IMG/VR virus record: IMGVR_UViG_3300048589_000316
Span: 1 to 50,765 of that record
Source of the DNA: a virus
Lineage: Duplodnaviria; Caudoviricetes
Reading direction: 5' to 3' (one strand)
Length of the DNA stretch: 50,765 nucleotides
The stretch's first letter is position 1, and every line of letters starts with the position of its first letter. Shown here one piece after another: positions 4,111 to 47,086 of the stretch. The notes beneath the pieces are model-generated. The model was not told the DNA's origin. It was given only the letters and a program-made list of their open reading frames with translations, and did not search any database. The translations under genes and the position numbers were made by a program.

Positions 4111-5643
4111 TTAAGCTATTCTGCCACCTATATTCACTTTTGTTTTTATCACCCTTCCTACTGCATTAGAAACTTCCTGTAGAACTGCGTAGCAAAGAAG
4201 ATCAAACATATCATCATGCAAATCATTAGGGAAAGTAATTATTTGGTTAATGAACTCTTGATTCCATCCACCAGAAATAATCTTGACTTTTTCACTTGCG
4301 CATGATGGTTGTGCATACTCCCCTCTGGTGTATTTACCATATGATACATGAAGATCATTAATTCTCATTACATTGAAATTACCGTATTCTTCTGTAGATA
4401 ACATACTCATTAGCCCTGGGCCAGAACTTTTGTACTCGATCCTAATATTACTCCTACTGTCGTAACCTTGTGAATTAAAGTAACCTCTGGAAAATTTCAG
4501 GAACTCATTTAATTCTTTGTAGAATGTAATACAACTTTTAATGTAGATCTTTCCTTTGAATACATAATAGGCCATTACTGCGGATGGATCGTTTTTGGTT
4601 TTTTCTGTAAACGCTCCATCGATTAGGAAATGAACTGGCACTTCTTCTGGGTTAAAAGGTAGTTCACTTTCTTGAACAATCTGAAACCACTCCCTTTGCA
4701 TCATACCACCATCTAATGGTGATGGCCTTTGTTGTTTCAGTGATGCAAATTTGTACGGACTGGTTCTTTTATCTTTTAGGTGGATTTCTGCTGAATGTTT
4801 ATCCTCCCATAATGCTTGATTAAGAACTCTAGGATCTTTAACTTTCAGTGCTTGTTTGATTGGTGGCGCTGCATCTTCTTTTAATGCCGGCAAAACAATT
4901 ACTGTCCATTTCTTTGCAACTTCTGCATCGTACTTTGGATTTTTTGGATCAAACAACCGTCCTGCCAAATCATCTTCATGCCATCTGGTAAATAACATCA
5001 ATTCACAACTATCATTGTTTAGTCGGGTTGACCATACTTCGTCGTACCAATCCCAGAGTGTATCTCTATACAAAGGCGAATTAGCCTGTTTCCTGTCTTT
5101 TATTGGATCATCAATAATTCCATATTCCACAGTGTCCGAAGTCAGTCCTGTGCCTACCCCTACGCTTTTATATGATCCCTTGTAACCTACTGTCTCATAG
5201 TATTTAGAGTTCCTTAATTCGTTATCAGCTTCAACACCTGCTTTATTTAGATAAGTTTTAGGAAATACTTCTGCATATCGTTCTGATTCAATTATGTCTT
5301 GAGTGGATCTATTAAACTTGGAACTAACCCCGATCTCATATGATGCACATGCCACTTTTGCTTTTGGTCTTATTCCATGGATAAATGCAGGAGTGATAAT
5401 ACTACTCATTGTAGACTTCCCATGTTGAGGTGGGATAAATATCGCTAACTTTTTGATTTTCTTATCTACCCATAATTGAAGGTAGTCGTACACCAGAATA
5501 TGAAACCATTGCAAAGAATAATCTGGTAACATAGCTTTTGCGAATGCTGCTAGTTTCCTTTTTGCCAATTGGTTTTCAAGTCTCCTAAGATCTTCTAAAA
5601 GTTGGCGCTTATTCTTTGTTTTTGACAACTCCACGAAGTTCAT
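4111..5643 (-). CDS. terL: Terminase large subunit
   Basis: PPQHGKS Walker A, IIDDPIKD Walker B, TRWHEDDLAG, C-terminal FPNDLHDDMFD nuclease motif. Confidence 0.95.
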   Translation of the reverse strand: MNFVELSKTKNKRQLLEDLRRLENQLAKRKLAAFAKAMLPDYSLQWFHILVYDYLQLWVDKKIKKLAIFIPPQHGKSTMSSIITPAFIHGIRPKAKVACASYEIGVSSKFNRSTQDIIESERYAEVFPKTYLNKAGVEADNELRNSKYYETVGYKGSYKSVGVGTGLTSDTVEYGIIDDPIKDRKQANSPLYRDTLWDWYDEVWSTRLNNDSCELMLFTRWHEDDLAGRLFDPKNPKYDAEVAKKWTVIVLPALKEDAAPPIKQALKVKDPRVLNQALWEDKHSAEIHLKDKRTSPYKFASLKQQRPSPLDGGMMQREWFQIVQESELPFNPEEVPVHFLIDGAFTEKTKNDPSAVMAYYVFKGKIYIKSCITFYKELNEFLKFSRGYFNSQGYDSRSNIRIEYKSSGPGLMSMLSTEEYGNFNVMRINDLHVSYGKYTRGEYAQPSCASEKVKIISGGWNQEFINQIITFPNDLHDDMFDLLCYAVLQEVSNAVGRVIKTKVNIGGRIA

Positions 5644-6016
5644 TAGTTAGGTGTTCCATTTGCTCCAAAATTTCATCATCAGATTTGGACTCTAACATTT
5701 CTTCAATAGGATCTGTTTTCTTAATCTCAAACCTTTCAACGTAACCTCTTGATTTACCTTTGGTTTTTAAGTAGAAAATGATCCCTGTCATATTTCCACC
5801 TTGGATCTCATTGAATAGCTTTCCTTCCACATAGTCCAAAGTTACATTTAGAATATCATCTACCCTGGCTTTGTAATCTTCATCTTCTGTTAACCAACGA
5901 TAGTGAGTTTGCCTTGATAAATTAGCTTTTGCACATGCTGTCGATACGACTCCCAGACTCTTTTCCAGACACTCTATTAGCCGATCCTTTTTAATATTGT
6001 CACTTTTGTCATTCAT
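5609..6016 (-). CDS. terS: Terminase small subunit
   Basis: N-terminal HTH (ACAKANLSRQTHYRW) and IIFYLKTKGKSRGYVER; overlaps the terL start. Confidence 0.85.
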   Translation of the reverse strand: MNDKSDNIKKDRLIECLEKSLGVVSTACAKANLSRQTHYRWLTEDEDYKARVDDILNVTLDYVEGKLFNEIQGGNMTGIIFYLKTKGKSRGYVERFEIKKTDPIEEMLESKSDDEILEQMEHLTNELRGVVKNKE

Positions 6017-6047
6017 CGTTTAAAGTTTTAATGTTAATGCTTTACCC

Positions 6048-6080
6048 AAAAAAAGCCAAATAACGTAATGTTAGATGGCC
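6048..6080 (-). terminator. Putative intrinsic terminator
   Basis: Imperfect GCCAAATAAC/GTTAGATGGC stem with a T-run on the minus strand. Confidence 0.45.
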
Positions 6081-6111
6081 TTAAAGGTAACAATAATTAA
6101 CTACTGTTGGA

Positions 6112-6318
6112 TTACTCGGGAAATAGTAATATTTCTAATTGAATTTGCTCAACTGTCATATCATGCTCATTAGCTAGATATTCCACAAAGTGCCTTAACC
6201 TGTCAATAGCAAAAGTTTGTTTCTGGTCTGGAAGATTAGTAACTAAAACGTTTCCAAATTTAGTCATGATTTTTAGCAACTTCATAACCTCTCTTAATGC
6301 GTTTTCTTTCTCATTCAT
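6112..6318 (-). CDS. Hypothetical protein
   Basis: 68-aa ORF. Confidence 0.55.
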   Translation of the reverse strand: MNEKENALREVMKLLKIMTKFGNVLVTNLPDQKQTFAIDRLRHFVEYLANEHDMTVEQIQLEILLFPE

Positions 6319-6496
6319 CTGCCCACAATTTTTTAGCTATTTCAACCTTTCCTTTCAGATCCTTGACTTTCTTTGAAGCATATGCTAAAGAATATGAATG
6401 ATCTCTTTTGATAGTACCATCCTTCAATCCTTTTTGGTATTCCTGATCGCATTGAGCGACGAATACATTTGGGCAATATTTTCTGTAAATATTCAT
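6311..6496 (-). pseudogene. Internally deleted DUF3560-like protein
   Basis: N-terminus (MNIYRKYCPNVFVAQC) joined directly to C-terminus (GLKDGTIKRDHSYSLAYA...AKKLW) of a longer Bacteroidota phage family recalled from memory. Confidence 0.55.
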
Positions 6497-6530
6497 GATG
6501 TTATTTATAAATGATTAAATTTTTATTTTT

Positions 6531-6583
6531 TGATAACGTAGTATATAATACATTTAAAAACGTATCATATACGGTCGTTATAC
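6531..6583 (+). repeat. attC-like site 1 (minimal, 53 bp)
   Basis: TGATAAC-GTA-GTATATAATACATTT / AAACGTATCATATAC-GGTC-GTTATAC. Confidence 0.75.
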
Positions 6584-6637
6584 ACAAGCGTAGGAAGTGC
6601 AGTACTTCGATTAAACACCTGTGCAAACTTGCCATAA

Positions 6638-6826
6638 TTATTTTTTGCCATCGCTCTTACAATTTTTCAAATTGTTTAGGAATTGCTTTAGTGGTTCTTC
6701 CCAATGTTTAGCAAGTTTTTGAGAGCCGTTTACAGCTTTCACTAAAGTAGTGTCGGGCATTTTTAACTGTCGTTCAATACCTCTAAGGCTTAACGAGTCT
6801 TTGTTTTTTCTTAGCCAATCAATCAT
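6638..6826 (-). CDS. Small HTH DNA-binding protein (cassette 1)
   Basis: LSLRGIERQLKMPDTTLVKAV helix-turn-helix pattern; coupled to the upstream gene. Confidence 0.6.
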   Translation of the reverse strand: MIDWLRKNKDSLSLRGIERQLKMPDTTLVKAVNGSQKLAKHWEEPLKQFLNNLKNCKSDGKK

Positions 6827-7533
6827 TACTTTAAATTTATTTTATTAATAACTTTCCCCATGCTTGTCCAGCTTTTTGTAACCTTACATGAGATGGAAAT
6901 TTCATCTCCTTTATTTCCAAGGCATTTCCCTGTATATTGGTAAATATTATTTTCACAGTCAATTAATCTTTGTGCTGTCCCCCATTCAGTTTCCCATTTT
7001 GATACAATCGTTAATTTTCTGTCAACTTTTACACTATCAATAGGAAGGGCAGGATTTGTAGTGTTTTCATTTTCTTCTAAAATTAAAATTTTAGATAATT
7101 CCCCGTATTCTTTAAGTTCTTCAGATAACATTTTGCTTTTAACATTCATATTGTTATAAGCCCAAAATAAATATTTAGGGTCAATGTCAAAAACTTCCGC
7201 TGCTGTTTTACCTGAATATTTACCAAAAGGAAAAGTATTGCTTTGTCTACGTGAACCACACAATTCATCTATTTCTATTTCAATTTGATACCTACCTATT
7301 TTTTTTCGAGCTTTCAAAATAGCTTCATCCAAATCAATAGCCAAATTCCCTAAATACGTGTCTTTTGCATATTTATTAAAAACCTTTGGGACAGAATACA
7401 TAACAAACATAACATCTTTAGACCCTTCTGATTGTCCTGATGTTATTAAAAATCTGCGGGTTTCGTGGATTTCACCTTTTAATATTTCTGTTAAATCTAT
7501 GTTACTTTCTTTGAAATTCGATAAAGTTGTCAT
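6826..7533 (-). CDS. Hypothetical protein with DUF3820/ExoX-C-like motif and possible C-terminal OB fold (cassette 1)
   Basis: FPFGKYSGK...DPKYLFWA motif; ATG at 7533 preferred over TTG 7557, which abuts the -7 box. Confidence 0.6.
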   Translation of the reverse strand: MTTLSNFKESNIDLTEILKGEIHETRRFLITSGQSEGSKDVMFVMYSVPKVFNKYAKDTYLGNLAIDLDEAILKARKKIGRYQIEIEIDELCGSRRQSNTFPFGKYSGKTAAEVFDIDPKYLFWAYNNMNVKSKMLSEELKEYGELSKILILEENENTTNPALPIDSVKVDRKLTIVSKWETEWGTAQRLIDCENNIYQYTGKCLGNKGDEISISCKVTKSWTSMGKVINKINLK

Positions 7534-7561
7534 AATCTTAGTTTTTCCGTTAAACAATATC

Positions 7562-7591
7562 CAAATATAAGGATAATATATTTAATATCCT
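7562..7591 (-). promoter_or_regulatory. Cassette-internal promoter (TATATTTG) with AGGATA..TATCCT inverted repeat
   Basis: Canonical Bacteroidota -7 box at 7562-7569; palindrome at 7570-7591. Confidence 0.55.
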
Positions 7592-7677
7592 AATATAAAG
7601 ATAAAAAAATAACCCCTCCCAAAAAAAATAATTATTACTTTCGTGTTTCAAATGAATGTAAGTGTTTAAACGCCAGT

Positions 7678-7771
7678 GTATAACAACGCATAAAAATAAA
7701 AGCCTTTGGTAAGGTAGTATTTCAAATCAGCGTTGTAGTGTCGGCTTCAATTCTTATGCAAACCGTTGTGC
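7678..7771 (+). repeat. attC-like site 2
   Basis: GTATAAC-AAC-GCATAAAAATAAAAGCC / GGCTTCAATTCTTATGC-AAACC-GTTGTGC. Confidence 0.8.
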
Positions 7772-7786
7772 TTCATTAAAACGAAA

Positions 7787-8237
7787 GCACAACATGCAAT
7801 ATAAAACATGCTGGCTTCCGTTCTTTTAATGAAGTTTGTGCTATTGGGAAGGAAAATAATAATGCCTCCCAACGCTCAACTACTTTTCAATTACAGGCCA
7901 ATTCCAATTCATAGGCTCATCTCCTTTATTCGCAGAAGTTACCCACAAATCCAAATTTCCATCTGTAATCACTTTCAAGTTCACGCACTCATCACTCCAA
8001 ACGGCTGTAATGATTGCAGGTAACTTGTCTTGCGTGTTGCAGCCTCCATTTAAGGTGCTCGCTGCTTCCATTTTGGCTTTATCAGCCTCTGTTGTGTTGT
8101 AAATTACAACTCTACCAATTGTTGGTTTCATAATATAAATGGGTTTTACAAAGCCCGCCCAAGGCATTATTATTTTTGTTCTTCGTAGTTAAGTTCTGTG
8201 CTAAATTCCGCACGTTTCATATTGCTGTCCGTTGTAG
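7787..8237 (+). repeat. attC-like site 3, with a whole gene in its loop
   Basis: GCACAAC-AT-GCAATATAAAACATGC / GCACGTTTCATATTGC-TGTCC-GTTGTAG; arms about 400 bp apart. Confidence 0.7.
7880..8167 (-). CDS. Conserved small phage hypothetical protein (true start probably MKPTIGRVV)
   Basis: KPTIGRVV..PAIITAVW..VNLKV..WNWP pattern typical of small phage proteins. Confidence 0.7.
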   Translation of the reverse strand: MPWAGFVKPIYIMKPTIGRVVIYNTTEADKAKMEAASTLNGGCNTQDKLPAIITAVWSDECVNLKVITDGNLDLWVTSANKGDEPMNWNWPVIEK

Positions 8238-8248
8238 TGCATTAAAAA

Positions 8249-8566
8249 CTATTTCTTTAATGCTCGGTCTGTATAATCTCGCTGTACAAAGTTTCCGCAT
8301 TTCCAACAGGTTTTATTACCGTCTTTAGGTTTAGTACTTTTGCCAGTATCATAGCCACAGCGAGTGCAAGGCTTATACCAAATGTCAAAGTCACCTAACA
8401 CACGTTTGGGTTTGTTTTTACTGTGTACAACAACAGGTATAGCAAATAATTTTACTATATCCTGTGCCAAAGCCTCAAACTTATCTGTAAAAATCGCATC
8501 ATTAAAATTATCTACCTCACTTTTATAGGCGTGTAATAATTCCATTATGTATTCATTTTTTGCCAT
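8249..8566 (-). CDS. Hypothetical Zn-ribbon protein that reads through an attC arm
   Basis: CTRC...CWKC motifs; VKLFAIPVV is encoded by the site-4 left arm. Confidence 0.65.
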   Translation of the reverse strand: MAKNEYIMELLHAYKSEVDNFNDAIFTDKFEALAQDIVKLFAIPVVVHSKNKPKRVLGDFDIWYKPCTRCGYDTGKSTKPKDGNKTCWKCGNFVQRDYTDRALKK

Positions 8567-8628
8567 TGTTTCTATTTTTTAGTTTTTAAATACGTAAAAT
8601 TACATTGCCATACCCACGTCCGTTACCT
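8425..8628 (+). repeat. attC-like site 4, containing the 5' end of a gene
   Basis: GTACAAC-AACA-GGTATAGCAAATAATTTTAC / GTAAAATTACATTGCCATACC..GTTACCT. Confidence 0.7.
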
Positions 8629-8634
8629 GCAATA

Positions 8635-9360
8635 CTACGTTAGTACTCTTTTACAGGCAGTTTCGTAATATTCAGGGTCTTGCTCCATCATAACAAAGTT
8701 TCTACCAAGATTTTTTGCTCCTAATCCTGTAGTCCCGCTTCCGCAAGTATTATCAAGTATCAAATCTCCTTCATTGGTGTAGGTTTTAATCATATACTCA
8801 ATTAAAGCTAATGGTTTTTGCGTTGGGTGTAACTTCCCTTCTCGTTCAGCAGTAACAAAATACTGTACGCTTCTTGGATTTCTCAATCCTGTTTTATTCT
8901 CTATTAAATTACCATTACCTATCTTACCAACTGCTTCTATTTCAGTTCTTTTTTCCTTGCCTTTATTATATGGTTTACCCTTTGTTTTTTGTGAGTTGTA
9001 AGTTGGTTTCTTTTTGTAAAACACCATAATATCTTCGTGTGCTATTAAAGGCATTTGTTTAGCAAAAAGAAAGTTGGTAGCCTTAGACTTTTCCCATATC
9101 CAATCATATCTATACATTTTCACATTACTTGTTCGTAAAAAAGAACTGAAAGGCTCTCTTCCAAAAAGAACTATTGCACCATTATCTTTAATTACTCTCT
9201 CGTATTCACTCCACAACTCATCAAAAGGTATTATCGTATCCCATTTACATTTTGTAGTTCCGTATGGTAAATCGCAAAAAATCATATCAATACTTTTGTC
9301 ATCTACATATTTCGGCATCAATTCAAGGCAATCCCCTTTATATATTTCGTTTATTTTCAT
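8635..9360 (-). CDS. N4/N6 DNA methyltransferase, beta class (cassette 4)
   Basis: GDCLE, DLPY motif IV, HPTQKP, LDNTCGSGTT motif I. Confidence 0.92.
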   Translation of the reverse strand: MKINEIYKGDCLELMPKYVDDKSIDMIFCDLPYGTTKCKWDTIIPFDELWSEYERVIKDNGAIVLFGREPFSSFLRTSNVKMYRYDWIWEKSKATNFLFAKQMPLIAHEDIMVFYKKKPTYNSQKTKGKPYNKGKEKRTEIEAVGKIGNGNLIENKTGLRNPRSVQYFVTAEREGKLHPTQKPLALIEYMIKTYTNEGDLILDNTCGSGTTGLGAKNLGRNFVMMEQDPEYYETACKRVLT

Positions 9361-9388
9361 AATTCAGTTATTTAGATGTGTTGTCATT

Positions 9389-9488
9389 TGCTAACAAAGT
9401 GTATGGCAAATAGCTTCTGTAGATGGTCAATCCGCAATCGCTCCTATCGGGCTTTTTGCTACTAGACCACACATCAGAGCCGTTATGC
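9389..9488 (+). repeat. attC-like site 5 (degenerate)
   Basis: TGCTAAC-AAA-GTGTATGGCAAATAGC / GCTACTAGACCACAC..GTTATGC. Confidence 0.6.
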
Positions 9489-9881
9489 CTCACTTAAAAC
9501 AAAATTCGGCAGGTGTTCCTTCACTTGTTTACAAAGCGATTCTACGTCAATCATTTTCCTGCCAGAATAATCTTGTCTGCTACAAGCATCTTTCAGGATT
9601 GAACCGTTTAAAAAGCCTAATTGATGCGCCCTTAGCACGGCAAATGTTTTTGACATATCACGACCACAAATATCATTATGCAAAACATAAATATCAGTAC
9701 CATAAATACCCAAAGTGTCTAAAGAAAGAAGTTTCATCATTCCTCCCATAACTGAATCAGGGTCGATTTTACTAGATTCAGGTTGTAACATTTCCATAAT
9801 TACATTCATTGCGCCCGGATTCCCGTCGCTCATTTTAACAACTACATTAATTGTGCTGTCTGCTAAGTTAATTCTACTCAT
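9483..9881 (-). CDS. Conserved phage hypothetical protein (cassette 5)
   Basis: MSDGNPGA...LDTLGIYG motif; stop codon lies in the GTTA core of site 5. Confidence 0.7.
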   Translation of the reverse strand: MSRINLADSTINVVVKMSDGNPGAMNVIMEMLQPESSKIDPDSVMGGMMKLLSLDTLGIYGTDIYVLHNDICGRDMSKTFAVLRAHQLGFLNGSILKDACSRQDYSGRKMIDVESLCKQVKEHLPNFVLSEA

Positions 9882-9926
9882 AATTTATAGTTTAATTGAT
9901 TAATAATTCAGTGTATAAAAGCGAAG

Positions 9927-10023
9927 GAATAACAATATATAATCTCAATAAGCACCGTTGGCGGTTCGTACTATGGGCAAAGGTCAGGTAAGGTGCTTAC
10001 AGCGGTTATACCAAGCGTTATTT
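9927..10023 (+). repeat. attC-like site 6
   Basis: GAATAAC..TATAATCTCAATAAGCACC / GGTGCTTACAGCGGTTATA-CCAAGC-GTTATTT. Confidence 0.7.
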
Positions 10024-10599
10024 AAGTCCAAAATGTTCATCGACTATATTATCAAATAATGACTTTTGTTCTGGCACAGGAGTCAAGCATTTATATTCAT
10101 CAATAAAAAACTTATCCTTTGTCATTCCTGCCCTTTTTCCTTTTTTGGTGTGTACATCATATGTGTACTCTGGAAGTTCGATAAATTTGTCCTTATGCTT
10201 TTCTAAGGACTTTTCAATTTCTTCATCTGTAATACCGATCTTGTGATCGTAAACTAAACATTGAAGATGATCAGAATCCCTGCTCTTGATTGCTCTGCAA
10301 AGGATCAAAACTGCCTTGGAAAGAAATATCCTTCCTTTCAATTTGTTCTTTGCCTTTGGGTTGTTGACTTCCCGAAAACCTTCAAATAATGCATGGATTT
10401 CTGTAGATATAATTCCGTCACAATCTTCTGCAGCAATGGTGATCAATCGCTTCCAAACGTAATTGTGATAATTTGAAGCGTATAGTTCATGAGCAAAGTA
10501 CCCTGCTAATTTTTCGTCGCTTCTTCTAATTGATTTTTGTAGGGCACTTGCTACGTCTAATAAATCATACCCTCGAACTGTTCTTAAATTCCAACTCAT
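10018..10599 (-). CDS. Stand-alone MgsA/RarA C-terminal-like domain protein (no ATPase domain)
   Basis: SALQKSIRRSD...WKRLITIAAED...DVHT..G; no Walker A motif. Confidence 0.7.
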   Translation of the reverse strand: MSWNLRTVRGYDLLDVASALQKSIRRSDEKLAGYFAHELYASNYHNYVWKRLITIAAEDCDGIISTEIHALFEGFREVNNPKAKNKLKGRIFLSKAVLILCRAIKSRDSDHLQCLVYDHKIGITDEEIEKSLEKHKDKFIELPEYTYDVHTKKGKRAGMTKDKFFIDEYKCLTPVPEQKSLFDNIVDEHFGLK

Positions 10600-10658
10600 T
10601 TTTGTGATGTTTTTAAATGTTTAATGATACCGTAATATAGGCATAAATATTTATATAT
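10600..10658 (-). promoter_or_regulatory. Early-type promoter, operator and leader copy
   Basis: ATAAATATTTAT palindrome at 10643-10654; leader AAACATTTAAAAACATCAC before the ATG. Confidence 0.7.
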
Positions 10659-10668
10659 GTCCTACCGA

Positions 10669-16054: not shown

Positions 16055-16108
16055 GATGTGATGTTTTATAAATGTTATACTGTAAATATAGTATAAATAT
16101 TTATATCA
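16055..16108 (-). promoter_or_regulatory. Early-type promoter, operator and leader copy
   Basis: TATAAATATTTATA at 16092-16105, TATATTTA -7-like box, ACATCACATC leader. Confidence 0.75.
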
Positions 16109-16122
16109 TCGACAAGACAACT

Positions 16123-17344: not shown

Positions 17345-18625
17345 TTACAAGTATCTGTTATGTGTAGAGTTCATGTAATTCAACAACTTGTCGAAAATAG
17401 CATCTTCAAACTCTCTTGATTCATCTACACAACCAGAATCTAAATGCATGGCTTCATGCATGATTACTTTTGCCATTGTAAACTTTCCTTTTTCAAATAA
17501 CTTTCTTGAAAGAAATATCGTTTTTTTCTCTGCTAAACCTAATGTTCTTTCACTATTGAAATCACAAAATACAATTGGGTGATCTATTGGATAATCACAT
17601 GAACTAAGATGATCCAAAATTTCTTCCAAATAATTTATCTGCGAGTCATTTGGCTCAAAAACTCTATACTTTATATATGATCCTGACATATTTTTTAAGG
17701 CGTTGTAAGACTCTCCAAATTGTGCTAATATCTGATTATAAACACTTGATGGCACCAAATAGGTTTTGTTCTTAATATTATTCTCTACCCATCCACCCAA
17801 TTCTATAGGTGCTACAAAATGACCATCCAACACTTTCTTCCAAGTGTCACTGAAAATATGTGTCTCAAACCCAAAACCATCACTTTCAATACTGTTGTTG
17901 TTTACAACTAATCTTAAATACCTTTGAATTATTTCAGGAACATCACACGAACAAAGCAATCTGTAAATAGCATCCCTCAATCCAAGGGAACTTGAATAAA
18001 TCCTAGACTCCGATATTTGAAGGCTATTGAAATTGTAACTAAATAAAAAAGCGCCGACTTCTTCATCAGTCATACATCTTATTCCTTTTCTGTAAACAAT
18101 AGTTTTTTCTGGATCATCAAGATAAATACATCCAGAATTACGTTTGTATGCCCAGGGCTTTTCAACAACAAAATAGTCCTCAATGTTATCGAGAAAATCT
18201 TTCATCGTTTCTGTTCCATTGTCTTTTACAGCAATTGTGGTTACACCTCTTACTAACTCGTATTTTTCGGCTCTATATATCCTTTCACCACCTTCATCGA
18301 TTGCATTTGAGTACAACTCTCTAATTGATTGCCAAAACGTCCACTCTGGACCAGTTTCAGTGGTTATACTTGTCTCCTTACCATTAAAGCAAATAACTTT
18401 AAAAGTTTTCTCTTTAAAAGTTTTCTCAACAGTAGAAATGATAATTTCTTCATGACCTCTAAAGATCCTAACTTTATATCCGTTCCTGATAAGATATGCA
18501 ATCGCATATTTATTTCCAGATCCGAACATACCGATCTTGTTTTTTTCATCCCTTTTTGTGGATGCCCCTAACAAGGTAAATGCTTCAACGTCTACAAGAC
18601 CGTTGTTTTTAATAACTGTGATCAT
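17345..18625 (-). CDS. GHKL-type ATPase fused to a zincin-like HExxH domain
   Basis: GASTK..IGMFGSG, RELYSNAIDE and C-terminal HEAMH. Confidence 0.7.
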   Translation of the reverse strand: MITVIKNNGLVDVEAFTLLGASTKRDEKNKIGMFGSGNKYAIAYLIRNGYKVRIFRGHEEIIISTVEKTFKEKTFKVICFNGKETSITTETGPEWTFWQSIRELYSNAIDEGGERIYRAEKYELVRGVTTIAVKDNGTETMKDFLDNIEDYFVVEKPWAYKRNSGCIYLDDPEKTIVYRKGIRCMTDEEVGAFLFSYNFNSLQISESRIYSSSLGLRDAIYRLLCSCDVPEIIQRYLRLVVNNNSIESDGFGFETHIFSDTWKKVLDGHFVAPIELGGWVENNIKNKTYLVPSSVYNQILAQFGESYNALKNMSGSYIKYRVFEPNDSQINYLEEILDHLSSCDYPIDHPIVFCDFNSERTLGLAEKKTIFLSRKLFEKGKFTMAKVIMHEAMHLDSGCVDESREFEDAIFDKLLNYMNSTHNRYL

Positions 18626-19109: not shown

Positions 19110-19165
19110 TGTGATGTGATTTAAATGTTTACTGTAAAGATAGTATAAATATTTATATATCCTAG
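19110..19165 (-). promoter_or_regulatory. Early-type promoter, operator and leader copy
   Basis: TATAAATATTTATA at 19144-19157, TATCTTTA, AAACATTTAAATCACATCAC leader. Confidence 0.75.
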
Positions 19166-19172
19166 AAATATT

Positions 19173-45296: not shown

Positions 45297-45360
45297 TGTG
45301 TGATGTGATGTTAAATGTTTAATTATACAATAAAGATAGTATAAATATTTATATATCCTA
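45297..45360 (-). promoter_or_regulatory. Early-type promoter, operator and leader copy
   Basis: TATAAATATTTATA at 45340-45353, TATCTTTA, ACATCACATCAC leader. Confidence 0.75.
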
Positions 45361-45410
45361 ACCTTTTCAAGAAATATTTTTAATTAGGTCGATTTCGCCA
45401 CAATTAAAAT

Positions 45411-46963: not shown

Positions 46964-47020
46964 GATATTGTGATGTTTAAATGTTTATTACAGTAAATGT
47001 ATGTATAAATATTTATATAA
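46964..47020 (-). promoter_or_regulatory. Early-type promoter, operator and leader copy
   Basis: TATAAATATTTATA at 47004-47017, TACATTTA, AAACATTTAAACATCAC leader. Confidence 0.75.
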
Positions 47021-47036
47021 AAAAGATAAATCGAAT

Positions 47037-47064
47037 AAAAAAGCCCATCTACGAATAGACAGGC
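47037..47064 (-). terminator. Terminator after the major tail gene
   Basis: GCCCATCTA-CGAA-TAGACAGGC with a T-run. Confidence 0.6.
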
Positions 47065-47086
47065 CAATTCAACTAATCAATAAACA

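Follow-up and report, generated by a model that had tools for sequence, protein, structure and literature searches.

The window analysed here is a whole virus record of the Caudoviricetes (IMG/VR record IMGVR_UViG_3300048589_000316), 50,765 bp long, with direct terminal repeats and a completeness rated at 100%. Between its terminase genes (TerS at 5609-6016 and TerL at 4111-5643) and a conserved gene at 10018-10599 there is a region of ca. 3.5 kb (6527-10027) in which, we believe with good confidence, five gene cassettes and the six attC-like sites that delimit them form an integron-like array, with inverted cargo and an enzyme presumably supplied in trans. An earlier note on this DNA, made from the letters alone, had described six hairpins of this kind, and the observation is real: all six sites exist at, or a few bases from, the positions that it gave. 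Comparison with other genomes establishes, at the level of sequence, that they are members of a single family, widespread among Bacteroidota phages, whose hairpin is conserved, strand-specific and covarying, with exchange at the AAC and GTT triplets, crossed flanks (i.e., complementary across a gene) and an association with a Xer-type recombinase and an attI-like site.

The hairpin family and its crossed flanks

Read on the coding strand, a site of this family consists of a variable flank of 6-8 nt, the triplet AAC, about 7 nt, an arm, a loop of 10 to ca. 400 nt, the second arm, 3-4 nt, the triplet GTT and another variable flank. This is the architecture of attC sites, i.e., inverse core (AAC), imperfect arms, variable loop and core (GTT). 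The right-arm motif CATAY-N5-7-CGTT was common to the window, Cellulophaga phage phi13:2 and Polaribacter phage P12002L, and a 19-letter right-arm pattern retrieved 15 viral contigs, 13 of them real and two being GC-rich chance matches. The consensus from those contigs was flank, AAC, AAT, GTGTATAGCAAAT.., loop, ..ACTTGCCATACAC, TCGTCC, GTT, flank. A covariance model (R1) was then made on the coding strand from 15 sites of 85-105 nt, all from other phages and none from the window, and run over all 50,765 bp on both strands with the filters off. It recovered sites 2, 1 and 5 at E-values from 1e-10 to 1e-4, each of them best on the minus strand, together with a plus-strand echo of site 1. Elsewhere in the 50.8 kb the sole match at E<0.1 was at 18562-18612 on the minus strand (17.6 bits, E 0.026), inside the gene 17345-18625 and far from the array, which is probably a chance match. 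In 165 kb of related loci R1 gave 68 matches, and a site of P12002L located between two methyltransferase genes (L005:3502-3564) scored 31.3 bits. Other tools were less informative: a generic finder of AAC..GTT stems returned 170 candidates in the window at its threshold and was usable only at the top scores (40 and 38), while a right-arm nhmmer profile found little beyond its own seeds.

The structure of the family is marked. Over 67 distinct sites 96.6% of the paired cells were indeed paired, compared to 69.3% in shuffles and 32-51% in slid controls, compensatory changes were found in 15 of the 16 arm pairs, and AAC and GTT were invariant in 66-67 of the 67 sites. The consensus fold had -14.6 kcal/mol on the coding strand vs. 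-7.7 on the other (the plus-strand alignment being larger by one sequence), and model scores were 47 to 100 bits on one strand vs. 20 to 26 on the other. One arm pair is a fixed G.U in 64 of the 67 sites and another in 43 of them. With one or two fixed G.T wobbles in the arms, full arm pairing is possible on the coding strand alone. The earlier note had taken the minus strand as the folding one, and the fold energies, the R1 matches (best on minus) and the wobble fixed in 64/67 sites all agree with this; the A.C mismatches that it had seen in the arms on the plus strand turn out to be the fixed wobbles of the site family on the coding strand.

A trace of recombination is found in the flanks. 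The six bases that follow each GTT were set against the six that lead up to the next AAC, in a collection made of 66 of the 68 R1 matches from related loci (two opposite-strand echoes were left out) plus four sites of the window, less one site with a shifted GTT. Adjacent sites were complementary at 6/6 positions in 27 of 51 pairs, and at 5/6 or more in 32. By comparison, the two flanks of one and the same site never reached 6/6 (0/69, mean 2.41 of 6), non-adjacent pairs did so in 66 of 4641 cases (mean 2.38), and none of 20,000 permutations attained the observed values. Most of the failing adjacent pairs were more than 1 kb apart, and a site between them has probably been missed. Flanks that are complementary across a gene, and not with their own partner, are the hallmark of hybrid sites that arose through exchange at the triplet, as in integron cassettes exchanged at G|TT, because a plain hairpin would pair its own flanks. 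In the window itself, the cores quoted in the earlier note are present, i.e., GTTATACAC/GTGTATAAC, GTTGTGCTT/AAGCACAAC, GTTGTA/TACAAC, GTTATGCCT/AGGAATAAC (8/9) and the weak GTTACC/GCTAAC, although a lone 9/9 inverted match carries little weight in a region with 252 inverted pairs in these 4 kb.

Breakpoints and the orientation of the cargo

Three contigs (L002-L004; 89, 34 and 70% complete) with terminases 97% identical to that of the window were the close relatives available. In all three, the stretch 6581-7762 has been swapped as one block for a different cassette with its own flanks (GTTAGCGG.. / ..CCGCTAAC, 6/6). Two of them (L002 and L003) have ca. 790 bp extra at 10016-10021, with CGTTAT at both ends. 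The block 7763-10021, containing four cassettes, is 99.96% identical, with identities of 91.5% and 97.5% in the backbone that flanks it. All four ends fall at the GTT of sites 1, 2 or 6. The precise gain or loss at G|TT that the earlier note had proposed to look for in related phages was therefore encountered as a cassette replacement, an insertion and a nearly identical block, all ending at GTT, and together with the R1 matches and the crossed flanks these breakpoints bear out its claim of an integron-type array in which the conserved triplet G|TT (AA|C) is the place of exchange. No tyrosine recombinase was found in the three contigs at the degrees of completeness given above. They also differ from the window by 447 bp at 6428-6442, inside a gene and away from the sites; the two forms are joined across a 15-bp overlap at these positions, indicating an ordinary deletion unrelated to the sites. 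The window gene concerned (6311-6496, 61 aa) is a remnant, and with the 447 additional bp the relatives have a 215-aa open reading frame (ORF; phrog_17519).

Contigs from the runs of four unrelated metagenomes (wastewater, soil, landfill and oil-field), in which 5-8% of the sampled words were held, provided a wider view. Twelve contig ends were tabulated, from pieces of at least 43 nt, plus one 31-nt piece at 9480, shorter pieces being left out. Nine of the 12 ends lie within 2 nt of a triplet (6579, 7763, 8233 twice, 9480/9481 twice, 9934/9935 twice and 8624). The block 9481-9934/9935, i.e., cassette 5, was present in two metagenomes at ca. 97-98% identity, between other sites. Among cultured phages, the homology of phi13:2 over the methyltransferase unit begins exactly at GTTACC, right beside site 4 (8623-8628; the countings of its GTT differ by one base). 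The unit of phi13:2 has flanks GTTACCTG / CAGGTAAC, complementary at 8/8 positions, and CAGGTAAC precedes its hairpin. We also considered that phi13:2 gp032 and a cassette gene of L002 might be homologous, as both follow GTTAGCGGTAAT, and discarded this since there was no BLASTP match.

All long ORFs of the window are on the minus strand, and the cassette genes are all opposite to the top strand defined by the crossovers, i.e., an ORF does not precede its attC when the array is read from the attI side. The breakpoints show that a site moves with the gene placed after it on the coding strand, and the cargo is thus inverted compared to a classical integron, just as the earlier note had maintained. 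If the non-coding strand is taken as top, the layout becomes canonical (recombinase pointing away, attI, cassettes ending in sites) with every ORF reversed. The sites also take part in coding. An ORF starting in the site and reading at least 20 codons past GTT was found in 25 of the 37 sites longer than 110 nt, vs. 3 of the 32 shorter ones, and in 19 of the 28 sites with an internal ORF start GTT is read as a codon. Hence a gene's own site often supplies its start, and no fusion across the junction is needed. In the loop-starting genes of L009, L011, L018, L020, L023, L025 and L027 (sites >110 nt) the arm encodes a peptide (e.g., ..AFAIHIVS.., ..CAIHNVV.., ..DIHNVT..). This peptide being common to them, the arm is under both pairing and coding constraint. 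A promoter in every site was considered as well and is unsupported: the Bacteroidota -7 motif TAnnTTTG was found upstream of one of the nine genes in the region, in a scan confined to this motif. Given this scarcity, read-through from phage promoters is the likely source of transcript. The cargo (DNA methyltransferase, ExoX-like protein and small proteins) is probably accessory and transcribed with the rest of the phage.

The recombinase and the competing explanations

As the earlier note had stated, there is no recognizable recombinase in this complete phage genome. Neither PF00589, PF00239 nor PF01797 gave a match, i.e., the window yielded neither a tyrosine nor a serine recombinase, nor a Y1 transposase, in a search that did not include the Y2 family itself. 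Likewise, no tyrosine recombinase was found in the complete phage G001 (93 kb) or in P12002L. However, the complete phage G003 (68 kb, with terminal repeats) has a 263-aa tyrosine recombinase directly beside its array. This protein scored 169 bits with NF040815, 150.3 with TIGR02249 (cut-off 265), 134 with XerC and 133 with XerD, all of them below the cut-offs, and its best solved relatives were the archaeal XerA 4a8e (132 bits, Xer-like over the full length) and IntI4 2a3v (97 bits, in two pieces). At the position of the IntI insert it has 26 residues vs. 74 in IntI4 (ca. 48 fewer), i.e., the insert is lacking, while the columns of the catalytic Arg, Lys, His, Arg, His and Tyr (assigned by reading the alignment) are invariant in 14 relatives. 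An IntI with the insert and above TIGR02249 or NF011946 is thus found neither in the window nor beside the sister array. Another candidate, gp038 of phi13:2, located two genes away from the methyltransferase cassette, was rejected as the cognate enzyme; it is a long integrase of the Bacteroidetes type (PF13102 and PF00589) with no integron-integrase match.

The recombinase family comprises 5614 proteins at E<=0.001 among 6060 candidates (120 matches listed are 67-100% identical), and 250 relatives were in viral contigs, one of the carriers being a 310-kb record with terminal repeats. In the 80 recombinase loci kept, R1 gave 293 matches, of which 285 were upstream on the recombinase strand, five were opposite-strand echoes and three were downstream in one locus. 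Sixty loci extend 1 kb or more upstream of the gene, and 55 of them have R1 matches; most of the other loci end less than 700 nt from the gene. These locus counts were made by hand from a table containing some duplicates (L088/L089/L091, L094/L098 and L070/L072). The locus with the three downstream sites (L076, 8887-10436) is the only one of its kind and may have a second array on the other side of the recombinase. Directly ahead of the recombinase gene there is a conserved half-site, flank-AAC-TAT.ATATA. L078 and L081 have in common a 960-bp cassette, 99.9% identical and ending at AAC triplets, which in one of them is between two 62-nt sites and in the other is against this attI-like half-site. 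Judged from the alignment, a cassette that is excised and then re-inserted at attI would be expected to show this pattern. Among 401 Bacteroidota genomes sampled there was one recombinase match at E<=1e-60, a figure that has no bearing on absence, and the terminase of the window had no match in five recombinase-bearing records. One contig end of a Flavobacteriaceae metagenome-assembled genome (L030) has a 375-aa relative of the recombinase (40% identical) separated by ca. 350 nt from a site of 98 bits and a cassette-like gene of 67 aa; it ends 42 nt past the model match (50 nt past GTT), as if the assembly had broken in a repeat.

The most plausible mechanism for the integron-like array would be strand exchange by a tyrosine recombinase on the folded coding strand, as carried out by IntI on attC bottom strands, with cleavage presumably at AA|C. 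The enzyme would be a small Xer-type recombinase (263-266 aa) that keeps the catalytic residues, lacks the IntI insert and is encoded by other phages, and a phage with no recombinase gene must then depend on supply in trans, from another phage co-infecting the cell, from a prophage or from a host element. XerCD integrates the folded single-stranded DNA of the CTX phage, which resembles the present case in that a Xer-type recombinase without IntI insert works on a folded single-stranded hairpin, but there a single phage attachment site in the chromosome is involved and here an array of cassettes. Sedentary chromosomal integrons of the Vibrio type have homogeneous attC sites, and integrons of the Treponema type form an "inverted integrase" group. 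The long arrays of near-identical sites per genome (here the 62-nt sites of L078/L081) and a recombinase co-oriented with the cassette genes recall them, whereas here the genes point to a recombinase downstream of the array and the carriers are phages. In integrons generally, exchange also takes place at G|TT with flanks matching across the cassette, one strand is favoured for folding, and complete versions have an attI site and a tyrosine recombinase at one end; the differences here are the reversed genes with the site 5' of its gene, loops that can hold a start codon or a whole ORF, a strand choice marked by fixed G.T wobbles, and an associated enzyme that is Xer-like without the IntI insert, this phage having no enzyme at all.

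The earlier note had supposed that a host integron-type integrase moves the cassettes, and this is the part of it that is not supported. The site family travels with a short, phage-encoded Xer-type recombinase, below the NCBIfam integron-integrase cut-off and ca. 48 residues short at the IntI4 insert, and classical IntI is reported to be very rare in Bacteroidetes (PMC9024848). The enzyme serving this phage is probably not a host IntI. A broader picture, to which we give slightly less than even credence, is that Bacteroidota phages share a pool of cassettes by means of an integron-type system based on a plain Xer-type recombinase, some of them (including giant ones) carrying the enzyme and the attI-like site, and others only an array that is served in trans during co-infection. 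Integrons are the textbook gene-capture device of bacteria, thought to depend on the integrase insert (essential for integron function according to Smyshlyaev et al., 2021; PMC8138268) and nearly absent from Bacteroidota (almost absent from Bacteroidetes in Néron et al., 2022; PMC9024848). The same cassette logic in Bacteroidota phages comes with three differences, i.e., cargo read with the phage, sites that can supply the gene start and an enzyme without the insert. It offers a concrete mechanism by which small accessory genes, anti-restriction methyltransferases among them, are gained, lost and traded by phages, and it shows that a genome without recombinase can keep its array in use. Were it true that this enzyme recombines the folded coding strand, single-strand hairpin recombination would not need the IntI insert, and either integron-like gene capture would have had two origins or the present form would stand near the ancestor of integrons. 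The sites and the enzyme being defined, the minimal needs of such recombination become testable.

Phage-borne attC clusters are not new in themselves. Qi et al. (2023; PMC9892861) reported 17 CALINs (attC clusters without an integron integrase) in phages, one of them in P12002L with two methyltransferases and with one site recombined by IntI1, so that such a cluster is already published for a sister of the present array. With six sites and no recombinase in the genome, the array may itself be a CALIN (at least two attC and no integrase nearby), insofar as sites recognized by R1, by stem score or by reading of the arms count as attC. The accessible part of that work has no mention of this site family, of uniformly inverted cargo, of genes in loops or of a Xer-type recombinase with an attI-like site, and a literature search found no published description of these features. 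It is nevertheless unlikely that we are dealing with classical integron cassettes, i.e., ordinary attC sites on which a host IntI acts. In architecture and crossed flanks the array does agree with attC cassettes; single-gene cassettes with AAC/GTT cores, imperfect arms, variable loops and DNA methyltransferase cargo are also found in phage CALINs; and of the attC sites predicted in P12002L one was recombined by IntI1 in E. coli (PMC9892861), a P12002L site between methyltransferase genes, which may or may not be the published one, being a member of our family. Yet in Bacteroidetes, apart from In0 elements, IntegronFinder 2.0 found no more than one complete integron (PMC9024848), the sister-array recombinase is below the integron-integrase cut-offs and without insert, and the cargo is inverted throughout. 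Quite improbable, too, is a module system of the Xer type, as that of the pdif modules of Acinetobacter plasmids (PMC7399989), in which short double-stranded cores around AAC/GTT would be exchanged, genes and hairpins would both be modules and the hairpin would not be the substrate. The enzyme is Xer-like over its full length, with XerA 4a8e as best solved relative, exchange is seen on the AAC side of a site as well as on the GTT side, phi13:2 has minimal armless AAC-N1-3-GTT sites, and pdif modules share with the array the inverted cores, the sites common to neighbours and, as modules with inverted Xer sites, the inverted-repeat flanks (PMC7399989). On the other hand, no dif-like 11-6-11 core is visible, only three bases per side being fixed and the flanks free. 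Sites of 28 bp (XerC-spacer-XerD) in alternating orientation were not seen on reading the sequence, to which no formal dif model was applied. Instead there are covarying hairpins with AAC and GTT 45-450 nt apart, and strong arm covariation with strand-specific wobbles would be needless in a double-stranded site.

Less probable again are regulatory RNA hairpins (leader, processing site or terminator) shuffled by ordinary or relaxed homologous recombination, as in the T4-type cassettes with promoter-early stem-loops (PeSLs), where small accessory genes are also found between stem-loop repeats, relatives differ by gain, loss and replacement, and phages are known to undergo shuffling mediated by the repeats (PMC2839356, PMC4122927). 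The transcript strand carries the structure, G.U pairs included, and the start codon in the loop with the ORF running through the arm in 25 of 37 sites >110 nt would fit such a role. However, PeSLs are promoter-terminator motifs thought to act via homology (PMC2839356, PMC4122927), while here there are three-base cores, identity at the junctions of only 3-6 nt, flanks complementary across the gene and not within the hairpin, and a dedicated recombinase with an attI-like half-site accompanying the arrays. A promoter with a terminator-like stem-loop in each repeat is not apparent either, TAnnTTTG being ahead of one of nine genes within the scan mentioned above, and an Rfam search of 5900-10300 with E up to 10 gave three chance-level matches only, no family fitting and Rfam containing no attC model. 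The hairpins may still have a second role, at the level of RNA. Finally, we regard as extremely improbable that the hairpins are ori- or ter-like signals at the ends of rolling-circle (IS91/HUH) elements. A scan of host genomes with the 19-nt right arm gave six loci, mostly single sites. In favour of the idea, a contig end of Marinilabilia salmonicolor (L026, 1-2010) has a full copy of the site (R1 82 bits) that adjoins a 273-aa SAM_4/Phage_integrase recombinase and an IS91-type Y2 transposase, an arrangement linking the hairpin family also to an IS91-like element in a bacterial genome. But the window has no Y1 transposase (Y2 was outside that search), and the phage arrays are beside a tyrosine recombinase alone.

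The integron-like reading of the array has its own difficulties. Individual sites fold weakly as single-stranded DNA. The earlier note had proposed folding both strands, and this worked in part: sites 1, 2 and 5 are slightly better on minus (z-scores minus/plus of -2.54/-0.70, -1.05/-0.71 and -1.71/-1.17, respectively), but the folds are weak taken singly and site 6 goes the other way (+0.11/-0.33), this site being also non-significant when judged by the model only (E 0.29). Taken on their own, the spacers at 8168-8248 and 8567-8634 do not fold because their partner arms are ca. 200-400 nt away. With such unimpressive single sites, the case rests on the comparison with other genomes, i.e., the family-level tests and the breakpoints. 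There, the R1 seeds were hand-chosen by stem score and sequence pattern, the 67-site alignment was fitted to the model, which favours structure, and, folding strand and transcript strand being one, a structured RNA would explain the wobble bias just as well. Among the metagenome contigs, one end was 8 nt past GTT (8243) and two were inside the loop of site 3, and cassette 5 is common to two metagenomes from GTT to AAC only, with different adjoining arms. This indicates exchange also on the AAC side, which a simple one-cut integron scheme does not predict and which keeps the Xer-module explanation alive. Recombination was not seen directly, and no circular cassette junction was found among the contigs, which were searched as such and not as raw reads. 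As to the enzyme, 5 of the 60 recombinase loci with enough upstream sequence show no site, and the recombinase lacks the insert that published work calls essential for single-strand recombination by IntI (PMC8138268).

Sites, cassettes and neighbouring genes

Sites 1, 2 and 5 have evidence from the model, site 4 from its stem score and site 3 from the pairing of its arms, site 6 being marginal by R1. The sites and cassette genes described below are on the minus strand, and positions refer to the plus strand. Site 1 (6527-6587), with a short loop, is the boundary of the array on the terminase side (AAC at 6535-6537, GTT at 6577-6579). Its R1 score was 34.9 bits on the minus strand (E 3.9e-7), compared to 20 bits on the plus strand. 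The homology with the three relatives stops at 6580, and a wastewater contig matches 6523-6579 and is unlike from there on. Cassette 1 (6580-7765) contains the genes 6638-6826 (62 aa) and 6826-7557 (243 aa, with an ExoX-like C-terminal motif) together with site 2; it has a Pfam match to PF20600 (40.7 bits), and GTTATACAC / GTGTATAAC are its flanks. Site 2 (7674-7775) is an 86-nt attC-like site (AAC at 7682-7684, GTT at 7765-7767; R1 47.4 bits, E 1.3e-10 on minus), where the homology with the relatives returns at 7763 and a wastewater contig begins, also at 7763, after unlike sequence.

Between sites 2 and 3 there is a spacer without gene (7768-7795), GTGCTTC-ATTAAAACGA-AAGCAC, which reads as two complementary flanks around a recurrent loop motif. 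A like arrangement is found ahead of long-loop sites in L019 and L020, and L008 and L018 also have GTT succeeded by a variable flank and CATTAAAAC. A motif CATTAAAACGA (on the coding strand TCGTTTTAATG) is encountered repeatedly, at 7775-7784 of the window, at 3525-3535 of L005 and at 1845-1856 of L078; in short sites it forms the loop, and where two sites are separated by a spacer without gene it forms the middle of that spacer.

Sites 3 and 4 are too long for R1, and long-loop sites with arms like theirs are also present in L018, L019, L020 and P12002L. The loop of site 3 (7787-8242; arms at 7796-7815 and 8209-8231, GTT at 8232-8234) holds a whole ORF (7880-8167, 95 aa, phrog_2293). As read from the sequence, 14 of 16 arm positions are paired and both exceptions are A.C on plus. 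Its left arm has near-identical copies in L018 and L013, and two metagenome contigs end at 8233. The gene of cassette 3 (8249-8566) codes for 105 aa with a Cys-rich C-terminal part, for which Pfam yields a sub-threshold rubredoxin-like match alone; its start codon is inside the site 4 loop, from which it runs on across the left arm and AAC. An oil-field contig matches 8243-8624 with three differences and is unlike on both sides. Site 4 (8421-8632; AAC at 8429-8431, GTT at 8622-8624, arms at ca. 8429-8455 and 8594-8624) contains the start of that gene in its long loop and has one of the two top stem scores of the window (38). Its right arm fits the pattern of the 13 real viral contigs, and metagenome contigs end at 8624/8625.

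The gene of cassette 4 (8635-9360) codes for an N6/N4 DNA methyltransferase of 241 aa (PF01555, 113.7 bits). It is 85% identical at the nucleotide level, in two pieces, to gp036 of phi13:2 and is the only part of the array with cultured relatives. Site 5 (9385-9492) is a 92-nt attC-like site (AAC at 9393-9395, GTT at 9482-9484; R1 26 bits, E 1.2e-4) at which soil and landfill contigs begin (9480/9481). The stop codon of the cassette 5 gene (9483-9881, 132 aa, no Pfam or PHROG match) is in the GTTA core of this site, and that of the backbone gene 10018-10599 (193 aa, phrog_16866, 97.5% conserved in the relatives) is in the GTTA core of site 6, both overlaps having been correctly noticed in the earlier note. 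Site 6 (9923-10027; 89 nt, AAC at 9931-9933, GTT at 10017-10019) is the other boundary of the array and the insertion point in the relatives; R1 gave it 13.9 bits (E 0.29) and its stem score was 30.

Next to the array, the backbone gene 10669-11397 matches the TET-associated glycosyltransferase family (PF20691, 33.7 bits), so DNA-modification functions are found both inside the array and adjoining it. The AAC...GTT spacers are confined to 6017-10017, and other intergenic spacers of the genome carry a different repeated motif. This is a conserved spacer of ca. 55 nt with TATAAATATTTATA, found at 10600-10668, 16055-16122, 19110-19172, 45297-45410 and 46964-47086, that is probably the phage's own family of promoters or leaders. 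It precedes several gene blocks and is also present in the relatives.

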